The notes beneath the pieces were generated by a model. The model saw nothing but the letters and a program-made list of their open reading frames with translations, ran no database searches and was not told the origin of the DNA. The position numbers were made by a program, and so were the translations under genes. From assembly GCA_965116875.1 (NCBI GenBank), contig OZ220733.1, positions 3,328,001 to 3,392,000 on the forward strand: DNA of 64,000 bases, in the 5' to 3' direction. Positions 52,682 to 64,000 of this stretch are shown here, one piece after another. The DNA comes from Candidatus Latescibacterota bacterium (GTDB taxonomy: Bacteria; Latescibacterota; UBA2968; GCA-2709665). The first letter of the stretch is position 1. The number at the start of each line of letters is the position of its first letter.

Positions 52682-54433
52682 TTATTCCTCCGCGCCGCAT
52701 CGCCTGAGCAAAGCACCCATGTCTGTGATCTTCGTGTCGAGTCGGGCATATTCCTTATGACCCTGCGGATTCTCGCTCCAGGCCAGGGGCGTCGCCCAGG
52801 ACGCGCCTGCCAGATTCGGATCGGCGCCCGCTTCCAGCATGAACCTGGCGAGTTCGGGCCACTCGAATCGTACCGCCATTGCGAGCGGCGTGGACTGCCT
52901 CTCTCCGCCCAGCACGTTCAACTCTGCTCCGTGGTCAATGAGCTTTCGCGCGAACACGATACGGTCTTGCTCCGTGACGTGCCAGGTGATCTCTGCGGTC
53001 CAATGCAGGGGAGTGAGGCCGCCTTTCTTCTCGGGTGCGTTGGGATCGAACCCGTGTTCCAGAAGGCGTTCGAAGCAGGCGTAGAAGTGTTCGGCGCGGG
53101 CCTTACCGGGATTGCCCGGACAGCGTAGCCGCCACATCCGCATGGCCAGGCACAGAACCTCGTGCATTTCGCTTTCCGAAAAACCCGGATTCTGCGAAAG
53201 GCAGATTGCCACGAGGTCCGGGTGCCCGCCGTGGACGGCGCCCTTCAGAACGTCCTTTGCGCACGACGGATCGGAATTGACGAGCGCCGCGTCCACGGCA
53301 ATGTTGTCGCTGTTGGCGGCGTAGAATCCCGGCGCCACCCCGTCGTCGAAGCCGGGAAATGCGCCGTGTCGCAACAGCAGCTTTTCGATCGCGTCGTTCC
53401 CGTTCGCGATCGCCCAGTTCAGTGCATTGCCGGAGGCGTCCATCACGGTATGCGCCGATGCTCCGTTCTCCAGCAGCAGCGTTGCCATCTCCAGATCATC
53501 ATTGAGCGCCGCCGCGTGCAACGGGGCCCCTCGCTCGGCCACGGGATATCCCTCATACTTATCGTATGGCGTGTCCGGGTCCGCGCCCCGTTCCAGCAGG
53601 AGGCGCACGACTTCCAGGTGTCCCTTGTCGGCGGCGATCGAAATTGGATACGCGTCCATGCCCGGATAGTTACGACCCCAGTCGTTCACGGCTTCGGGAT
53701 CGGCATCGAGGATCCTGCGCGCGCCGTCGACGTCGCCGATCGCGCAGGCCGCCCACAGGTCGTATTCCGCTCCCCGTCCCAGCAGAATGCCGCCAATGAC
53801 CGGCCACAAAGGACTCGGCGGGGGGTCCCAACCCCGTTTGGGCCGTGGGCCAAGGGCGAGGTGGATCGGCTTCTTCCCGCGGGCATTTGTTCGATTCGGA
53901 TCGGCGCCCCGATCCAGAAGCTCCTGGACGATCTCGACGTGATGATTTTCCACCGCGACGTGAAGCGCCGTGTCGCCGCCACGGTTCACAGAGTGTACTC
54001 CGGAAGGGTCCGAGTCGAGCCGTTCCGCCAGGGCGTCGATTTCGCCTCTTTCGGCGGCCCGGCATAGAGCCGCGCCAGTCTCCGTCTCTCCGGACTGTCT
54101 CAAGCGCCACGCTTCCATAGCTTCGGCCACTTCGGTATGCCCGCTGTGCCGGGCCATGTCGATTGCCGACACCCGCTCCCGGTAGGTCACCCGGGTCGGG
54201 CTGGCGCCGGCCTCCAGAAGCAGCCGCAGCACCTCCAAATGACCCTCCCGGGCCGCGTAGTGAATGGCCTGATAGCCCTGCACACCGTCTCGCCGAGCGA
54301 GTTCGGGTTTCCGCTCCAGGATGGCCCGCACCTCGTTAACGTCGCCCTCGCGTGCCGCCTTGCAGATTTCCGCGACACCGGCGGATTCGCTATCCCGGAC
54401 CGGTCCGTTCCTCCTGGACGTCTTCTTCGTCAT
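52682..54433 (-). CDS. Ankyrin-repeat protein
   Basis: Many TALH/PLH..A...G..EVVRLLLERGADP repeats; AAGGA RBS before ATG 54433. Confidence 0.92.
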   Translation of the reverse strand: MTKKTSRRNGPVRDSESAGVAEICKAAREGDVNEVRAILERKPELARRDGVQGYQAIHYAAREGHLEVLRLLLEAGASPTRVTYRERVSAIDMARHSGHTEVAEAMEAWRLRQSGETETGAALCRAAERGEIDALAERLDSDPSGVHSVNRGGDTALHVAVENHHVEIVQELLDRGADPNRTNARGKKPIHLALGPRPKRGWDPPPSPLWPVIGGILLGRGAEYDLWAACAIGDVDGARRILDADPEAVNDWGRNYPGMDAYPISIAADKGHLEVVRLLLERGADPDTPYDKYEGYPVAERGAPLHAAALNDDLEMATLLLENGASAHTVMDASGNALNWAIANGNDAIEKLLLRHGAFPGFDDGVAPGFYAANSDNIAVDAALVNSDPSCAKDVLKGAVHGGHPDLVAICLSQNPGFSESEMHEVLCLAMRMWRLRCPGNPGKARAEHFYACFERLLEHGFDPNAPEKKGGLTPLHWTAEITWHVTEQDRIVFARKLIDHGAELNVLGGERQSTPLAMAVRFEWPELARFMLEAGADPNLAGASWATPLAWSENPQGHKEYARLDTKITDMGALLRRCGAEE

Positions 54434-54458
54434 CGCGAACAGTTCCTTCTTTGGCCTT

Positions 54459-54566
54459 TTAACCTTGATTCGTAAGTTTTCGTGGACGTTAATTCGAATA
54501 TGTGCTAGTAAATAAAGGCGATTAGAAGGCGGATTACCAGGATACACCCGGTCACTGGAAGTGAAC
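54459..54566 (-). promoter_or_regulatory. Conserved ~107-bp upstream element, copy B
   Basis: Close match to 8212-8318; contains TCAC-N5-GTGA. Confidence 0.75.
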
Positions 54567-54596
54567 AGTTCCTCTCCCCGTGGCCCCTCAGATTCG

Positions 54597-54704
54597 GGTA
54601 GAAGGGAGACGGTAGAGGGGAGAGATTTCCTGCCTTATGGAGTTTCTTTTCCTGCCGGAGGCAAGAAGGAACAGAGTACCGGGCAAGGGTTTCTTCTACC
54701 GTCT
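54597..54704. repeat. Heptamer-armed hairpin repeat serving as IS1111 target (continues at 56285-56302)
   Basis: GGTAGAR/GGGAGAV heptamers and a CCTGCC-GGA-GGCAAG core; homologous to 63188-63300. Confidence 0.75.
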
Positions 54705-54734
54705 ACTATGTTAAAAGTCAAGAGAAAACGACCA

Positions 54735-55120
54735 TATGTTGGCCTCAGATGCTGGGGTTACTCTACCATTATGCGTACCTATGCGACGCGTTCATTCCGA
54801 CACGCTCGACGAGCGTGTCGGAATGAACGAAATAAACGTCATTGAGGCCTGAATGGTTCCCTGCCGCACGACAGCAGTAGGGACCAGGCGTACGGTGTTC
54901 GCTGTTGGATGGCCTCAGATGCTGGGGCAACGCTACCAATCTACTATTCGTAGTCGCCTGGTGCAGGCGCTGACATGTCATTTATCCGGAGCCGTGCGAT
55001 AGGGGACGGGGCGTGCAAACTTCACTTACGTAGTACCCTGTGGGTCTACAAGACGGTAGGCGCCGTCCCCTGTACTCCGCGATCAAAAGCGGTGCGTGCG
55101 CAGGCATCTGTTGCGACCGT
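54735..55120 (-). ncRNA. Bridge/seek RNA region of the IS1111 element
   Basis: Internal loops whose strands match target CTACCGT-CT-TCCCT and donor ATAGTGA-CT-ACTAT; duplicated 3' hairpin. Confidence 0.8.
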
Positions 55121-55124
55121 GTGT

Positions 55125-56195
55125 TCACCCGGCGATGAGGCCCAGCTGATAGGGCTCTCCATTCAGCAGGATCCTGCGCATACGGCCCACCAGGATTCTG
55201 GCAACACCGACGATGGCGCGTTTGCCACCGGCACGCACCTTCAAGTGTTCGTATTTTTCCTGCATCGCGGGATCTTTCTCGATCAGGCGCCAGGCCGCCT
55301 GGGTAAGTAACGCACGTACAATGGGCTTTCCCTGGCGGGTGATGCGCCCGTGCCTCACGTGCTCGCCCGACGAGTGCTGGCCGGGCGTCAGCCCCACGTA
55401 GGCCGCCAGCGCATCTGCGTTCTTGAAGCGCGCCACATCCTGCAGTTCCAGGAGGATCTCCATGGCAGACAAGCATCCCACGCCCGGGATCGACGTCAGG
55501 ATCGCCACCCGATCCCGATACGTGTCTGTTTGCGCAAGCTCCCACAGCATTTTCGTCTGGCGCCCCACCAGTTCACACAGATCATCGTATTGTTCCAGCA
55601 TGTTCTCGAAGCTTTCCTGCGCACACGGCTCCCCCAGGTCCACACCACGCAGTGCGGTCACGAACTTGTCAGACCACGTCCCTCTGGATTCTTCGTGCAC
55701 ATACAAACCCATATACCGCAGTTCGGCCTTGATCCGTAGTTGTACACGCACCCGATCCTTGATGAACTGCCGGCGGCGACGACTCACTTGGCGGTGGCAC
55801 CGCTCTTCATGCGTCGGCACATAGATCGATGCCAGCAGGTCCGTCCTCAGATAATCCGCCAGCTTGAAGCTGTCGATGGAATCCGTCTTGACCCGATTCC
55901 CACTCTGGCTCGGGATCAGGCTCGGCGGCGTCACCGAAGCAGACACACCCATATCGACAAGAAAATCATATAACCAGAAACCGAAATAACCGGCTTCATA
56001 CACCGCAAAGATCTCTTTCGCTTCGCCATAACGACTCAACACCTTATCGATCGCCTCTGCTGTGCCTGCGATGCGATTGGAGAACAGTCGCAACCCATCC
56101 TCGTTGAGAATCGTCACGTGCCACTGCTTGAGATGCATGTCGATGCCCACGAAAAGATCCTTGCCATCCCACGCTTCAACGGTATACCTTGCCAT
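55125..56195 (-). CDS. IS110-family DEDD recombinase/transposase
   Basis: GIDMH, YEAG, KTDSIDS, IPGVG, YVGLTP.QHSSG; AGGAGG RBS. Confidence 0.96.
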   Translation of the reverse strand: MARYTVEAWDGKDLFVGIDMHLKQWHVTILNEDGLRLFSNRIAGTAEAIDKVLSRYGEAKEIFAVYEAGYFGFWLYDFLVDMGVSASVTPPSLIPSQSGNRVKTDSIDSFKLADYLRTDLLASIYVPTHEERCHRQVSRRRRQFIKDRVRVQLRIKAELRYMGLYVHEESRGTWSDKFVTALRGVDLGEPCAQESFENMLEQYDDLCELVGRQTKMLWELAQTDTYRDRVAILTSIPGVGCLSAMEILLELQDVARFKNADALAAYVGLTPGQHSSGEHVRHGRITRQGKPIVRALLTQAAWRLIEKDPAMQEKYEHLKVRAGGKRAIVGVARILVGRMRRILLNGEPYQLGLIAG

Positions 56196-56296
56196 CACGA
56201 GCCTCCTTGTGAAAGTGTTTGTTACGGGCAAAGGCAAAGTATACTCTCACAAGCTGAGGCTCAACTCATTTTAACATAGTGACTTCCCTCTACCCT

Positions 56297-58696
56297 CTAC
56301 CCGCATTCAGGCCTTTTGTGGCCAATTTGACTGTAGTCTTTTTTCTGATTGAGGTTGTGCGGTGATCGGTTATCTGTGAGATCCGCGGTCTCCACCAGTT
56401 TCCACGTGTTTCCGCGATCCGGTGACATCATCAGCGAACGGCGGCTTTCCGGGTGGTCGTTCCTGTAGAACCAGTAGGTGGAGAAGTAGTCGTACGAGAG
56501 GAACAGCCGCCCGATGCGGTCTATAGTGAGCCGGTGGTAGAACACGCTGTATTCGGAGAACGGCGGCACGACGAGGACCCGGGGTTCCTGCCAGGCCCCT
56601 TCCGCGGGGCGATGCTGATGGGCCAGCGTCGCGTAGTTGCCGGCCGGGAAGTAGCTGGTGCCGTTCCACCAGAGTCTGAAGGCCGAATGCAGCGTGTCCT
56701 CCGGGTCGCAAACGAAGCCGATGTAGGTCTGCCGGGCGTCCGGCCATGCATCGCGGGGTTCCGTCCAGCCGGCGTCAGCCGTGTTCGAGCCCAGCGATCG
56801 TGCATACGGGAAGGGACATCCATGGGTTCCGGACAGCGCGTGCAGATAACCCCGGCTGTCCATGGTGATGCTGGGAGAATTGTGGATGTCGTTCGCGGGC
56901 GGACCGTAACCGACCAGTGCGGGCGCGCCCATCTGCCGCGTCTCCCTGTCGACGGTGGCGACGTACGTGGGCACGCCGGGGACGTCCTCGCCGGGGTCGG
57001 TCGCTTCGGCCCAGATGACGTTTACTCTGCCTTCTCTCGAGACAACCGAAGCGGGGATCCCGGAATGCTGGGAAAGGCCGATGCACCGATCGGAGACGAG
57101 TATCGGTTCGCCCAACGAAAGGCCGCGGGACGTCTTCTCGGGCAGGAAGAGCTCCAGGTCATTGACTTTTCGCCAGAACAGGCGCGCATCTTCCTCGGTG
57201 CGGGCGTAGCGGAGAACCGGAGGCGGTCCGTCACAGGAATTATGGCCGGTAAACCATTCGATATCGAAAGTACGCGGACAATCCTCTCTGCCGGGAATCG
57301 CGCATGCGGAGAAGGTGCGACCCTGGTCCGAGGAGTACAGCAGGTTGGGTTGACCGTTGACATTGGCTACAATATATAGTAGATTCTCCGAGTCGAAGGC
57401 AATCTTGGTGGATGCAGTTCCATCAGCGGCGTTGTCAATGCCGCGTACGGAACTTCCGAAGTCGGACTCGGTCCAGCGGCCGTCGCGCAAGGCGCTGATC
57501 CCTTTTTCGGTCCGTACGAATGGACGGTTTTCGAGATCGAAATAGATCTGGTTCTCTACGGGAAGATCGGGCACGAAACCGAACTGTGCGTTTTCATGTT
57601 CGTAGGGCTTCAATACCAGGGGCAGTCTGATGGGCCGCCGGACGGGTGAGGTTCCCGCCCTCAGCGTCAGCGTTGAATAGGTGGATATTTCCGGGTAGGT
57701 ATCGGACGTGGCCCTCAGCCGGCACGTAAGGACGTCATCTTCACCTGCCGAATCCGGCATGGCGTAACGGGCGGTGACGCGAGTGCGTTCCATTGGGCCC
57801 AGATCGACGGTGTCCGTGGAGAGCCGGACGGGGAGGGTGGATGCCCCGTCTGTTTCAGGCGTCAGCCGCACGGTTTGCGCCCTTTTGGAACTGTTTCTGA
57901 CGACGAAGTCGATCGCGCCGGACGCTCCGGCGCGGACGTACAGGTTTCGGTTGTAGGGTGTGAGCAGCCAGCGGCAGGCGTGGAGGGGGAAGAAGGATTC
58001 CGGGTTCGGGCTCCAGTACGACATGTTTACGTGGGGGTCGTCGTCGGACCAGCGCGTGACGCCGTCGACGTGGATAACGGCTTGCTGGACGGGCAGGTGG
58101 AGGCGCCAGGGCGTGGAACGGCGATCGTCTGCCGGAAACGTATGCGTGACGCGCCCGTTCCGGACCGCAAGGGTATCCACGGGGTTTCCGGCAGCATCGA
58201 ACACGGTCAGCGCTTCTACAGAATCGGGCAGGTCTTCGATTTCGACGTCGAACGTGCTCCGGGGTGGAAGAAAGCAAACGTTGCCGGGATGCTCCGGCGC
58301 GAGCAGGACGATGGGTTCCTGGTGCCTGGCGTCCTTGTGACCGCGGGACGTCTCGATGAGGTAATGCCTGCAGTTGGTCCGAAACGCCCAGACGATCTCC
58401 TCGCCGTACCGGTCATTAGATATCGTGATGTTGAGTTTGTAGATGCCTTTGTGGTTGACATGCGTCGACAACCGTGTATGTTGAACAGGGCCGTTGCCAT
58501 CGCCGGGACCGGAATCGGGAATCGTCACCTCCTGAATGACCCTTCGGTCCGGCGTAATCAGAAGCGCGCGCAGGTCCGTGCGGCGATTGTGGACGTTCCG
58601 GTCTCGTTTCTGCAGGTCAATGACAAGTTCACCGGGCTCGGCAAGAAAATACGCACCTCCCGCGCCGCCGATACCCCATCGAATCGTCGAATCCAT
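56297..58696 (-). CDS. BNR-4/Asp-box beta-propeller protein
   Basis: SSDQGRTF and SPDRGNTW Asp boxes; DIHNSPSITMDSRGYLH..SGTH. Confidence 0.75.
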   Translation of the reverse strand: MDSTIRWGIGGAGGAYFLAEPGELVIDLQKRDRNVHNRRTDLRALLITPDRRVIQEVTIPDSGPGDGNGPVQHTRLSTHVNHKGIYKLNITISNDRYGEEIVWAFRTNCRHYLIETSRGHKDARHQEPIVLLAPEHPGNVCFLPPRSTFDVEIEDLPDSVEALTVFDAAGNPVDTLAVRNGRVTHTFPADDRRSTPWRLHLPVQQAVIHVDGVTRWSDDDPHVNMSYWSPNPESFFPLHACRWLLTPYNRNLYVRAGASGAIDFVVRNSSKRAQTVRLTPETDGASTLPVRLSTDTVDLGPMERTRVTARYAMPDSAGEDDVLTCRLRATSDTYPEISTYSTLTLRAGTSPVRRPIRLPLVLKPYEHENAQFGFVPDLPVENQIYFDLENRPFVRTEKGISALRDGRWTESDFGSSVRGIDNAADGTASTKIAFDSENLLYIVANVNGQPNLLYSSDQGRTFSACAIPGREDCPRTFDIEWFTGHNSCDGPPPVLRYARTEEDARLFWRKVNDLELFLPEKTSRGLSLGEPILVSDRCIGLSQHSGIPASVVSREGRVNVIWAEATDPGEDVPGVPTYVATVDRETRQMGAPALVGYGPPANDIHNSPSITMDSRGYLHALSGTHGCPFPYARSLGSNTADAGWTEPRDAWPDARQTYIGFVCDPEDTLHSAFRLWWNGTSYFPAGNYATLAHQHRPAEGAWQEPRVLVVPPFSEYSVFYHRLTIDRIGRLFLSYDYFSTYWFYRNDHPESRRSLMMSPDRGNTWKLVETADLTDNRSPHNLNQKKDYSQIGHKRPECG

Positions 58697-59050
58697 AGGT
58701 CTTCGCCTCTTGTTGGTGGTTGATCCCTCGCAGCTGGTACAAGTATAAGGTTGAGGGTCGTCAATTGAAACGAAAATAAGTCCGGGGCAGGGTCTGTGGA
58801 TCTGCATTTCGCAGACCGGCGCCCGGAGTGCGTTGCCCCGTCTGCTTCCGGACACAACGTTGGATTTTTGGAACGAAGAAGCGATCTGCGAAGTCGAAGA
58901 GCAATGAAGGTTTCACGCCTGGATGTTGGCTCTTCCATGGACGCTGCAGATTCACAACCCTGACGTAACCGGCCCGTAACACGAAAAATTATATTGTGCA
59001 GCTGATGTTTTTTGTCGCGGTTTGGTATATCTACCGTGAGGGGGGACAAG

Positions 59051-62580: not shown

Positions 62581-62755
62581 TTCAGGTCTCCGTTTACGTG
62601 CGCATGCGCGATGGGGAATCACGCAACATGGATGGACAGGATAGACAGGATGAAAGGTACCCGGCGGGTGTCTGCCTGCGCATCATAGCCTCCAATATAA
62701 GCAACAGACTGTCCGGCAAAAACAACTTGAACGAGCGCTTAACCCTGCCGCCCAA

Positions 62756-62975
62756 ACCTCTCTACACGGCCCGTTGCAAAGCGATCAGCGGTCAGCCGTC
62801 AGCTAAAGGCGAAAGGCAAAAGCAACCCCTCACCACCCCGCAGACCTCTCTCCCCGGCCCGTCGCAAAGCAATCAGCGGTCAGCCGTCAGCTAAAGGCGA
62901 AAGGCAAAAGCAACCCCCTCCGCCCAGCCCCGCCGACCTCTCTCCCCGGCCCTCTCTCCTAAAGGAAAGAGGGAG
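62756..62975. repeat. ~90-bp tandem repeat (2+ copies) ending in CCCTCT-type hairpin
   Basis: ATCAGCGGTCAGCCGTCAGCTAAAGGCGAAAGGCAAAAGCAACCCC occurs twice; ACCTCTCT...GGCCC three times. Confidence 0.85.
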
Positions 62976-63300: not shown

Positions 63301-64000
63301 ACTATGTTAAAAGTCAAGAGAAAACGACCATATGTTGGCCTCAGATGCTGGGGTTACTCTACCATTATGCGTACCTATGCGACGCGTTCATTCCGACACG
63401 CTCGACGAGCGTGTCGGAATGAACGAAATAAACGTCATTGAGGCCTGAATGGTTCCCTGCCGCACGACAGCAGTAGGGACCAGGCGTACGGTGTTCGCTG
63501 TTGGATGGCCTCAGATGCTGGGGCAACGCTACCAATCTACTATTCGTAGTCGCCTGGTGCAGGCGCTGACATGTCATTTATCCGGAGCCGTGCGATAGGG
63601 GACGGGGCGTGCAAACTTCACTTACGTAGTACCCTGTGGGTCTACAAGACGGTAGGCGCCGTCCCCTGTACTCCGCGATCAAAAGCGGTGCGTGCGCAGG
63701 CATCTGTTGCGACCGTGTGTTCACCCGGCGATGAGGCCCAGCTGATAGGGCTCTCCATTCAGCAGGATCCTGCGCATACGGCCCACCAGGATTCTGGCAA
63801 CACCGACGATGGCGCGTTTGCCACCGGCACGCACCTTCAAGTGTTCGTATTTTTTCTGCATCGCGGGATCTTTCTCGATCAGGCGCCAGGCCGCCTGGGT
63901 AAGTAACGCACGTACAATGGGCTTTCCCTGGCGGGTGATGCGCCCGTGCCTCACGTGCTCGCCCGACGAGTGCTGGCCGGGCGTCAGCCCCACGTAGGCC
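63301..64000 (-). mobile_element. Second IS1111 copy (truncated by window edge), including ncRNA region and transposase 3' end at 63721
   Basis: Near-identical to 54705-55404; one visible change (MQEKY versus MQKKY). Confidence 0.95.

Follow-up and report, generated by a model that had tools for sequence, protein, structure and literature searches.

A repeat-flanked 170-nt module in the RNA tail of an IS1111-type insertion sequence from a Latescibacterota bacterium: probably a structural trailer rather than a third guide loop

The 64,000-nt stretch of DNA analysed here (contig OZ220733.1, positions 3,328,001 to 3,392,000 of the forward strand, GenBank assembly GCA_965116875.1, Candidatus Latescibacterota bacterium; hereafter the window) carries on its minus strand an IS1111-type insertion sequence (copy A, 54705-56284) whose non-coding end contains a repeat-flanked module of 170 nt, and it is this module that concerns us. 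The ends of the element were placed by comparing six genomic copies and an empty site. The plus strand reads CCGTCT/ACTATGTTAAAAGTC at the left and AACATAGTGACT/TCCCTC at the right junction, the insertion core is CT (AG on the element's strand), and there is a subterminal inverted repeat of 12 bp (ACTATGTTAAAA / TTTTAACATAGT). The transposase, or bridge recombinase, is encoded at 55128-56237 (minus strand, 370 codons from a TTG start), and its Pfam matches to PF01548 (E 4e-19) and PF02371 (E 5.5e-27) give it both the N-terminal RuvC-like DEDD domain and the C-terminal domain by which the IS110 family is recognized. Within this family the IS1111 group has been described as having the motif GL-P----S(t)G in the C-terminal domain, a long non-coding region after the gene and an RNA in which the top-strand match lies 5' of the bottom-strand match (PMC11187229), together with subterminal inverted repeats of 7-17 bp (PMC11208160). 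Because its left end is short, 423 nt of non-coding DNA follow the gene, the inverted repeats are subterminal and the translated transposase contains GLTPGQHSSG, a form of that motif, we assign the element, on the evidence of its sequence, to the IS1111 group as a member that has not been described before; the order of its guides, top-strand match 5' of bottom-strand match, is also that of the group.

A blastn search with positions 54400-56400 against the whole genome gave the six copies of the element, which are 89-100% identical over ~1590 bp, and ~200 further short matches, all of them within the flanks (54446-54707 and 56282-56365). Since the short matches are confined to the flanks, the element must have inserted into a dispersed host repeat. 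Around copy A this repeat covers ~320 bp (54446-54704 and 56283-56365 of the window, with ~200 partial matches in the genome), and an empty site of it is present at G000:C1:5160824-5161144. Copies A, B and C share one position of the host repeat (..CTACCGTCT/TCCCTCTACC..), copy B running off the end of the window. Copies D, E and F (G000:C1:1774058-1775649, 1776390-1777980 and 5315215-5316805) are found in a second type of site (..GAAGAATCTCCCGTCT/TCTCGCTCG..) which, as the flanks are alike among these three copies, represents another repeat family. Copies D and E have the same orientation and are only ~740 bp apart.

A scan of genome representatives for related transposases yielded 7 loci (42-53% identity) and one of metagenome contigs a further 38 (44-64% identity), and these relatives share the element's ends as well as a common plan of the RNA. 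In the RNA sense the plan leads from the stop codon through a target-binding loop, a donor-binding loop and a tail of 46-66 nt to the right end. The target loop of the family is closed by a stem of 11 bp and has a 5' strand that ends in CU-GUG, an inner hairpin, the sequence ACCACG and a 3' strand ending in AG, and 13 of the 17 pairs in its alignment show compensatory changes. The donor loop is made up of UCGG, a 5' strand ending in xU-GYGG, a hairpin, ACCACG-AAUAGnAG and CUGG, with compensatory changes in 5 of 13 pairs, and the right end follows the short tail as CTTGAC...ACATAGnAG. Immediately 5' of the closing stem, all aligned relatives have an AG without exception in both loops, and so do the two loops of the present element. 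The assignment of the donor loop is supported by its covariation with both ends of the element, as the variable base n of the donor guide is the right-end base in 27 of 27 relatives and here, and the 5' donor guide changes together with the left end (TCAC/UGAC, TAAC/UUAC and TTAC/UAAC).

Covariance models built from the loops of 25-26 relatives only (R1 for the donor loop, R2 for the target loop, using 26 relatives, and R3 for both) place the two loops of the element with confidence. The complete two-loop RNA is found by R3 at 54929-55086 (53.9 bits, E 5.7e-13), the target-binding loop by R2 at 54999-55086 (minus strand, 22.9 bits, E 5.1e-6) and the donor-binding loop by R1 at 54929-54996 (minus strand, 40.3 bits, E 9.9e-12). 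The 5' strand of the target loop, CCUACCGUCU-UG, pairs with the top strand of the right half of the target and the 3' strand is ACG-UAAGUGA-AG, while the donor loop has AUAAAUGAC-AU as its 5' strand and ACG-AAUAGU-AG as its 3' strand, the latter equal to the right end, ACATAGT-AG. Copies A-D have CCUACCGUCU as their target guide, copies E and F have CCUCCCGUCU; the flank is TCTACCGTCT beside copies A-C and TCTCCCGTCT beside copies D-F, and it is TCTCCCGTCT that the CCUCCCGUCU of E and F matches. Guide and flank change together across the copies and the target guide therefore tracks the flank, with the near-identical copy D, which has the A-type guide, tolerating one mismatch to its site. The target loop alone accounts for all six insertion sites, and the two-loop RNA behaves as described for seek and bridge RNAs. 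Each family model also finds a weak, partial match in the inner hairpin and ACNACG of the other loop (6.1 and 7.3 bits, within 54929-55086). By their sequences the target and donor loops are paralogs.

Beyond the donor loop in the RNA sense lies the module, and what the initial annotation had seen in its sequence was borne out. The 18-mer TGGCCTCAGATGCTGGGG, noted as occurring twice 170 bp apart, is present at 54740-54757 and 54910-54927; a repeat search extends it to 29 nt with 90% identity (54740-54768 / 54910-54938), and by eye the direct repeat is an imperfect one of 31 nt (27/31, 54740-54770 / 54910-54940). By our own arithmetic, (420^2/2)/4^18, the chance that an exact 18-mer is repeated in a 420-nt stretch is roughly 1e-6. 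Copy 2 of the repeat (54910-54940, minus strand, RNA AUUGGUAGCGUUGCCCCAGCAUCUGAGGCCA) consists of the 3' half of the donor-loop closing stem and the ancestral tail hairpin, and its tail part is homologous to that of two relatives, L038 and L039. Copy 1 is located at 54740-54770 (minus strand, RNA AAUGGUAGAGUAACCCCAGCAUCUGAGGCCA). The 139 nt inserted between them (54771-54909, minus strand) can be divided, in RNA order, into a 5' hairpin region (54858-54909), ACCAUU (54852-54857), CAGGCCUCAAU (54841-54851), GACG (54837-54840), a U-rich bulge (54830-54836), a palindromic hairpin (54789-54829), CGUC (54785-54788) and GCAUAGGUACGCAU (54771-54784). The hairpin had been called perfect with 19 bp, and its arms (54789-54808 and 54810-54829) are indeed 100% complementary, giving a 19/20-bp palindrome that in the RNA would form 19 bp and a 3-nt loop. 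The strings quoted for the module (ACCAUU, AAUGGU, CAGGCCUCAAUG, GACG/CGUC and GCAUAGGUACGCAU) are all on the minus strand. Repeat copy 1 is followed by the last part of the tail and by the element's right end (54705-54739, minus strand), with a weak terminator-like site, the family-conserved CTTGAC and the subterminal repeat. The module of copy B, said to be intact at 63331-63526, shows zero differences from that of copy A across the aligned 63326-63536 (minus strand). It is present in all six genomic copies, which represent five distinct sequences, and contigs of all four other public DNA runs are colinear through it with none of the listed joints skipping it, with the proviso that contigs can drop rare variants, among which there might be a form lacking the module; a 1589-nt contig from one of these runs, for example, covers 54699-55400 with 11 differences and no gaps.

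Compared with the rest of the family, the insert is an extra and lineage-specific part of the tail, and the earlier description of an additional repeat-delimited module downstream of the target and donor loops holds with the loops located independently, as the plan of 26 of 27 relatives lacks it. Between the donor-guide core and the right end, 26 of the 27 relatives (44-64% transposase identity) have 46-66 nt (median 56) and L038 has 207 nt, compared with 238 nt here. Subtracting one 170-nt period from 238 leaves 68, which is near the 66 of L039, and the tail that is left when one period is removed (..AGCAUCUGAGGCCAAC..) resembles the tails of L038 and L039. The upstream copy of the repeat adjoins the donor loop and includes the 3' half of its closing stem, and the downstream copy adjoins the end of the ancestral tail. 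In L038, which is the closest relative (a metagenome contig, 64% identity), a long imperfect hairpin of ~150 nt occupies the same place, between the tail and the right end (~L038:1489-1672), with a fold z of -6.4 and no duplication of the tail. As this hairpin is unrelated to the one studied here, the tail segment has taken up a long hairpin twice, independently. Outside the six elements the insert was found nowhere in its own genome, the best outside match of a short-word search having an E of 0.031 among the 71 matches listed (59 of them outside the elements). Among 168 genomes of the phylum, four including its own have a match at E <= 0.01, and the other three are chance matches of 26-31 nt to the palindrome in apparently coding sequence. 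Plasmids gave no DNA match, and their transposases are < 40% identical. An Rfam 15 scan of 54300-56500 (both strands, E up to 1) gave a single chance-level match, to a model of a human long non-coding RNA and inside the gene.

The initial annotation saw in the module a third guide loop and a second RNA unit, and this interpretation is not supported by comparison with the family. The covariance models that it had suggested as a check recover the element's own loops, as described above, whereas the module is at the level of noise: R1 gives 2.7 bits (E 6.1) against 40.3 bits for the donor loop, R2 finds nothing on the minus strand of the module at E up to 10 against 22.9 bits for the target loop, and R3 gives -1.1 bits (E 5.9, among 18 noise matches) against 53.9 bits for the two-loop RNA. 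A weak R2 match on the plus strand (54706-54772, 7.8 bits, E 0.11) was rejected as chance, being on the wrong strand and almost all gap. At the position of the core the module has AU (copies A-D) or AC (copies E and F) and not AG, and the ACCACG that stands beside the inner hairpin throughout the family is replaced by GCGUCG. In IS621, pairing of the core bases and cleavage beside the core are central to the reaction (Hiraizumi et al. 2024, PMC11208158). The proposed fold was not confirmed by RNAfold, whose ensemble for the tail gives the closing stem ACCAUU/AAUGGU a pair probability of 0.0 and the small CAG/CUG hairpins of the repeats only 0.11-0.23. In the same ensemble GGCCUCA is predicted to pair with UGAGGCC of repeat 2 (0.53) or repeat 1 (0.47). 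When the whole end or the tail is folded, the minimum-energy structure uses this helix, and the tail folds better than shuffles (z = -4.2). Such a pairing, combined with an invariant sequence, had been named in advance as an argument against a guide loop; the pairing is predicted, but the invariance is not seen, since the sequence varies across the copies.

As to the sites that the module was supposed to specify, an alternative target or the element's own repeat, the module's strands have no in-register match to the ends or flanks of the element, and the match to the element's own repeat needs a 1-nt bulge. A genome scan for third-loop sites in the family geometry counted 55 sites with <=3 mismatches, where permuted motifs gave 64 +/- 31, and 3 with <=2 mismatches, where they gave 4.0, and for the site as originally predicted the counts were 35 against 52 +/- 33 and 2 against 3.5. 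The positive controls are equally flat (composite target-loop site 32 vs 32, right half 86 vs 87), and the scan is therefore undiscriminating and cannot decide the matter. Loop-like complements are present in the sequence (ACCAUU/AAUGGU, GACG/CGUC and the 19 bp), and the five distinct copy sequences on which covariation can be judged contain one compensatory pair, in the hairpin, which is too few to separate the loop fold from the alternative helix. Kinship of the module to the loops of the family could not be detected, their invariant AG core is missing from it, and we consider it unlikely to be a third programmable loop.

We propose, with moderate confidence, that the 3' tail of the bridge (seek) RNA has undergone a lineage-specific expansion of 170 nt, the module, which is co-transcribed with this RNA as a structural trailer. 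The hairpin of copy F has 0 differences in 41 positions, compared with 13 in the 98 positions of the rest of the insert and 127 in the 1110 of the gene, and by our own arithmetic the chance of 0 changes in 41 positions at 13% divergence is ~0.003 (copy F as a whole is ~11% diverged). Copy C, which has only a handful of differences from copy A, has one compensatory double change in the stem, from C-G to U-A. The 19-bp stem is kept, whether through selection or through templated correction. In 54500-56400 there is no promoter-like site, and the sole terminator-like site on the minus strand (54744-54730), a weak one, comes right after repeat 1 with GGCCAACAUAUGGUC and then GUUUUCUCUU. The upstream copy of the repeat is without terminator-like context. 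Bridge RNAs of IS621 lengthened at the 5' or the 3' end, up to 775 nt, remain functional (PMC13626964). Hence a constrained stem, the lack of a promoter-like site in that region, a terminator-like site after repeat 1 and the tolerance of IS621 to extensions together argue for a co-transcribed and structured trailer. In such a scheme the transposase, the bridge RNA and the module would be transcribed together, and the long perfect stem and the GGCCUCA(A)UG : CAU(C)UGAGGCC helix would set or protect the 3' end of the RNA, perhaps as a site for a double-strand-specific RNase or as a block to exonucleases. Alternatively, the stem and the helix might insulate the right end, whose CTTGAC is probably the -35 element of a circle-junction promoter. 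A circle junction (54705-54725 joined to 56265-56284) would read TTGACT, 17 nt and TATGTT, with CTTGAC conserved in the right ends of most relatives, and it is thus probable that CTTGAC and the TATGTT of the left end form a junction promoter of the kind described in other elements (PMC12288879; PMC11187229). By analogy, the independent long hairpin of L038 fits a structural role at this position of the tail.

A number of observations weigh against a structural trailer. Co-transcription and any RNA processing are inferred from the sequence, the structural role would be a generic one, and the stem could be kept by a DNA-level correction of palindromes and not by a function of the RNA. The 19-bp hairpin, which was considered as an intrinsic terminator and rejected, has no U-tract after the stem on either strand and is not listed by the terminator scan, and so it is not a classical terminator. 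The changes of copies E and F in GGCCUCA and in the repeats are uncompensated (4 of 50 helix cells unpaired, 0 compensated), and for that reason the long-range helix is unsupported by covariation. The outline of the module does resemble a loop, with a 6-bp complement to the duplicated half of the closing stem, an internal loop and UG...CG at the base of the inner stem. Its strands resemble those of the donor loop beyond shuffles (p = 0.028 in a post hoc test, the paralogous donor and target loops giving p = 0.082), and in copy F no part varies more than the loop strands (3/11 and 3/14), a pattern that reprogrammed guides would also give.

The resemblance to the donor loop might have its origin in a tandem duplication of the whole ~170-nt bridge RNA, both loops and tail, of which the downstream copy would have lost its function and diverged outside the closing-stem half and the tail hairpin, and would now be a pseudo-loop without a role of its own. 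This is an unlikely explanation but one with several points in its favor. The 170-nt period of the repeat equals the distance that separates the beginning of the target loop from the end of the tail, the repeat starts exactly after the donor-guide core and takes in half of the closing stem, and the strands that give the p values quoted above do have similar segments (AAUGAC; UACGAAU vs UACGCAU). The first hairpin of the module shows a weak, partial match to the inner-hairpin consensus (UGGUCCCU..AGGGAACCA, 2.7 bits), and loops do double within the clade, as in the relative L040 where a 61-nt unit is present twice with 89% identity. However, the stretches of 140 nt upstream of the two repeat copies show no similarity beyond that of shuffles (p = 0.41 in local and p = 0.25 in global comparison), the module is matched by none of the three family models, the test of strand similarity was chosen after seeing the sequences, and a neutral relic would neither hold its 41-nt palindrome free of changes at 11-13% divergence nor fix a compensatory pair. 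Another role for the module, that of an RNA switch or antisense element, follows from the complement itself: GGCCUCAAUG would pair with CAUCUGAGGCC in either copy of the tail hairpin, and the alternative conformations would regulate the maturation, stability or activity of the bridge RNA. The complement comprises 7 bp, a bulge and 3 bp, where an exact 7-mer complement in 139 nt has a chance of ~0.008 by our own arithmetic, the two pairings are predicted to be nearly equal, and the minimum-energy folds of both the whole end and the tail contain the helix. We nevertheless think a switch quite unlikely, as compensatory changes are absent, the helix is disrupted on just one side in copies E and F (in a covariation test that is weak with only five distinct sequences), and the complement could be the by-product of an inverted partial copy of the tail that dates from the origin of the insert.

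It is very improbable that the module serves as a functional third binding loop, in which a dimer of the recombinase would bind it and its strands would read a third, self or alternative site, either within the full RNA or as a separate single-loop RNA. Its outline of closing stem, internal loop, inner stem starting with UG...CG and apical hairpin would fit, its 3' closing half and tail are copies of those of the donor loop, its 5' strand ends in A-UG like that of the donor loop, the strands of copy F vary most while the stem does not, and a truncated single-loop RNA is reported to cooperate with the bridge RNA in an IS110 element (10.1101/2025.10.25.684509). Set against this are the replacement of the invariant AG by AU or AC, the change of ACCACG to GCGUCG with no match to any model, the closing-stem probability of 0.0, the sufficiency of the target loop for the six insertion sites, the strands that match neither ends nor flanks in register and the own repeat only with a bulge, and the lack of an excess of predicted sites in a low-power scan. 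A working third RNA domain of another sort also has only a slim chance, whether as a loop with a core other than AG that reads the DNA of its own tail hairpin, for autoregulation or for the addition of loop modules, or as a cis-acting decoy that titrates or positions a recombinase dimer. Finally, insertion into the tail of a foreign palindromic mobile element, resembling a repetitive extragenic palindrome (REP), a miniature inverted-repeat transposable element (MITE) or the ssr9 module of ISPpu9, is also very unlikely. The unrelated hairpin of L038 at the same place and the small-RNA module that hitch-hikes after the transposase gene of ISPpu9 (PMC12288879) would be in line with such an event. 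A REP had been put forward as an option in the initial annotation, yet the 41-nt palindrome has matches only inside the six elements. There is no solo copy of the insert in the genome, the only full matches being those in the elements, the genomes of the phylum contain only the short chance matches described above, and the flanks of the insert are copies of internal tail sequence and not of the element ends. Moreover, a target duplication of 31 nt is not known to us as the product of any transposition mechanism.

The structural trailer that we favor can be compared with what has been described for other RNA-guided elements. The seekRNA elements ISEc11, ISPa11 and ISKpn4 (Siddiquee et al. 2024, PMC11187229) are similar to the present one in having a DEDD transposase, subterminal inverted repeats and a long non-coding region after the gene, in the top-strand match being 5' of the bottom-strand match in the RNA, and in inserting at one position of a repeated host sequence with no duplication beyond the core. 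They differ in that the RNAs reported to be bound by their proteins are of 82-96 nt (peak) and ~150 nt (long), while here a two-loop RNA of 158 nt is followed by the 170-nt module. With the IS621 bridge RNA (Durrant et al. 2024, PMC11208160; Hiraizumi et al. 2024, PMC11208158) the element shares two internal loops whose strands pair with top and bottom strand of target or donor around a 2-nt core, but here the RNA is encoded in the right end and not the left, the order of the loop strands is reversed and the tail has an extra module without a core. The closest precedent for an extra repeat-flanked module would seem, by analogy, to be ssr9/MITEPpu9 of ISPpu9 (Pares-Guillen et al. 2025, PMC12288879), which also follows the gene of an IS110-family transposase and is confined to a narrow lineage, and which is described as not needed for transposition. 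In contrast to the module described here, which is flanked by copies of the internal tail and never occurs alone, ssr9 is flanked by copies of the end box, has solo copies and forms circles of its own. The tail hairpin of L038 is comparable as a strongly folded insert of ~150 nt between the tail of the donor loop and the right end, although it is unrelated in sequence, forms one long imperfect hairpin and comes without a duplicated tail. The truncated target-loop RNA of CazIS110-1 (10.1101/2025.10.25.684509) is likewise a single-loop RNA that acts beside a full bridge RNA, but it is reported to be a shortened form of the normal target loop and not an additional loop with a sequence of its own. 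No description of a three-loop bridge RNA was found in the literature searched, and the supplementary folds of long seekRNAs, which were outside that search, may show extra stem-loops.

Bridge and seek RNAs are under development as programmable recombination tools, and natural variants show which of their parts tolerate additions. In this clade the stretch between the donor loop and the right end accepts structured inserts of 150-170 nt and has done so twice, independently, and a structured insert in the tail can come under selection for its stem. A loop-like outline is insufficient to call a guide, and the AG core, which is invariant, and the bases conserved around the inner hairpin serve better for that purpose. 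Binding of the recombinase by the module, should it occur, would make this RNA the first natural guide with three loops, a prospect that the evidence presented above makes unlikely.

The duplication of loops in the clade is seen in L040 (also L072), a relative with 59% identity in which a target-loop-like unit of 61 nt occurs twice, at L040:1304-1364 and 1420-1480, the two being 116 nt apart and 89% identical with their differences concentrated in the apical part. The second unit is matched by the family target-loop model with 15.5 bits (E 0.0027), and L040 is a natural case of loop duplication. Since such duplications occur, multi-loop bridge RNAs could be evolving here. The genomes of 40 relatives contain no transposase closer than ~50%, barring a remnant of 37 residues that is 89% identical; this remnant (L012, G008:C1:848723-848833), from the same genus, retains only the first 37 codons of the gene. 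The neighbors of copy A are an ankyrin-repeat protein of 621 residues (52682-54547, minus strand, Ank_2 E 2.4e-51) and, on the other side, a protein of 852 residues with a BNR-repeat match (56297-58855). Upstream of copy B there are two adjoining 82-nt direct repeats that are 91% identical (62748-62917), with similar sequence continuing to ~62960.

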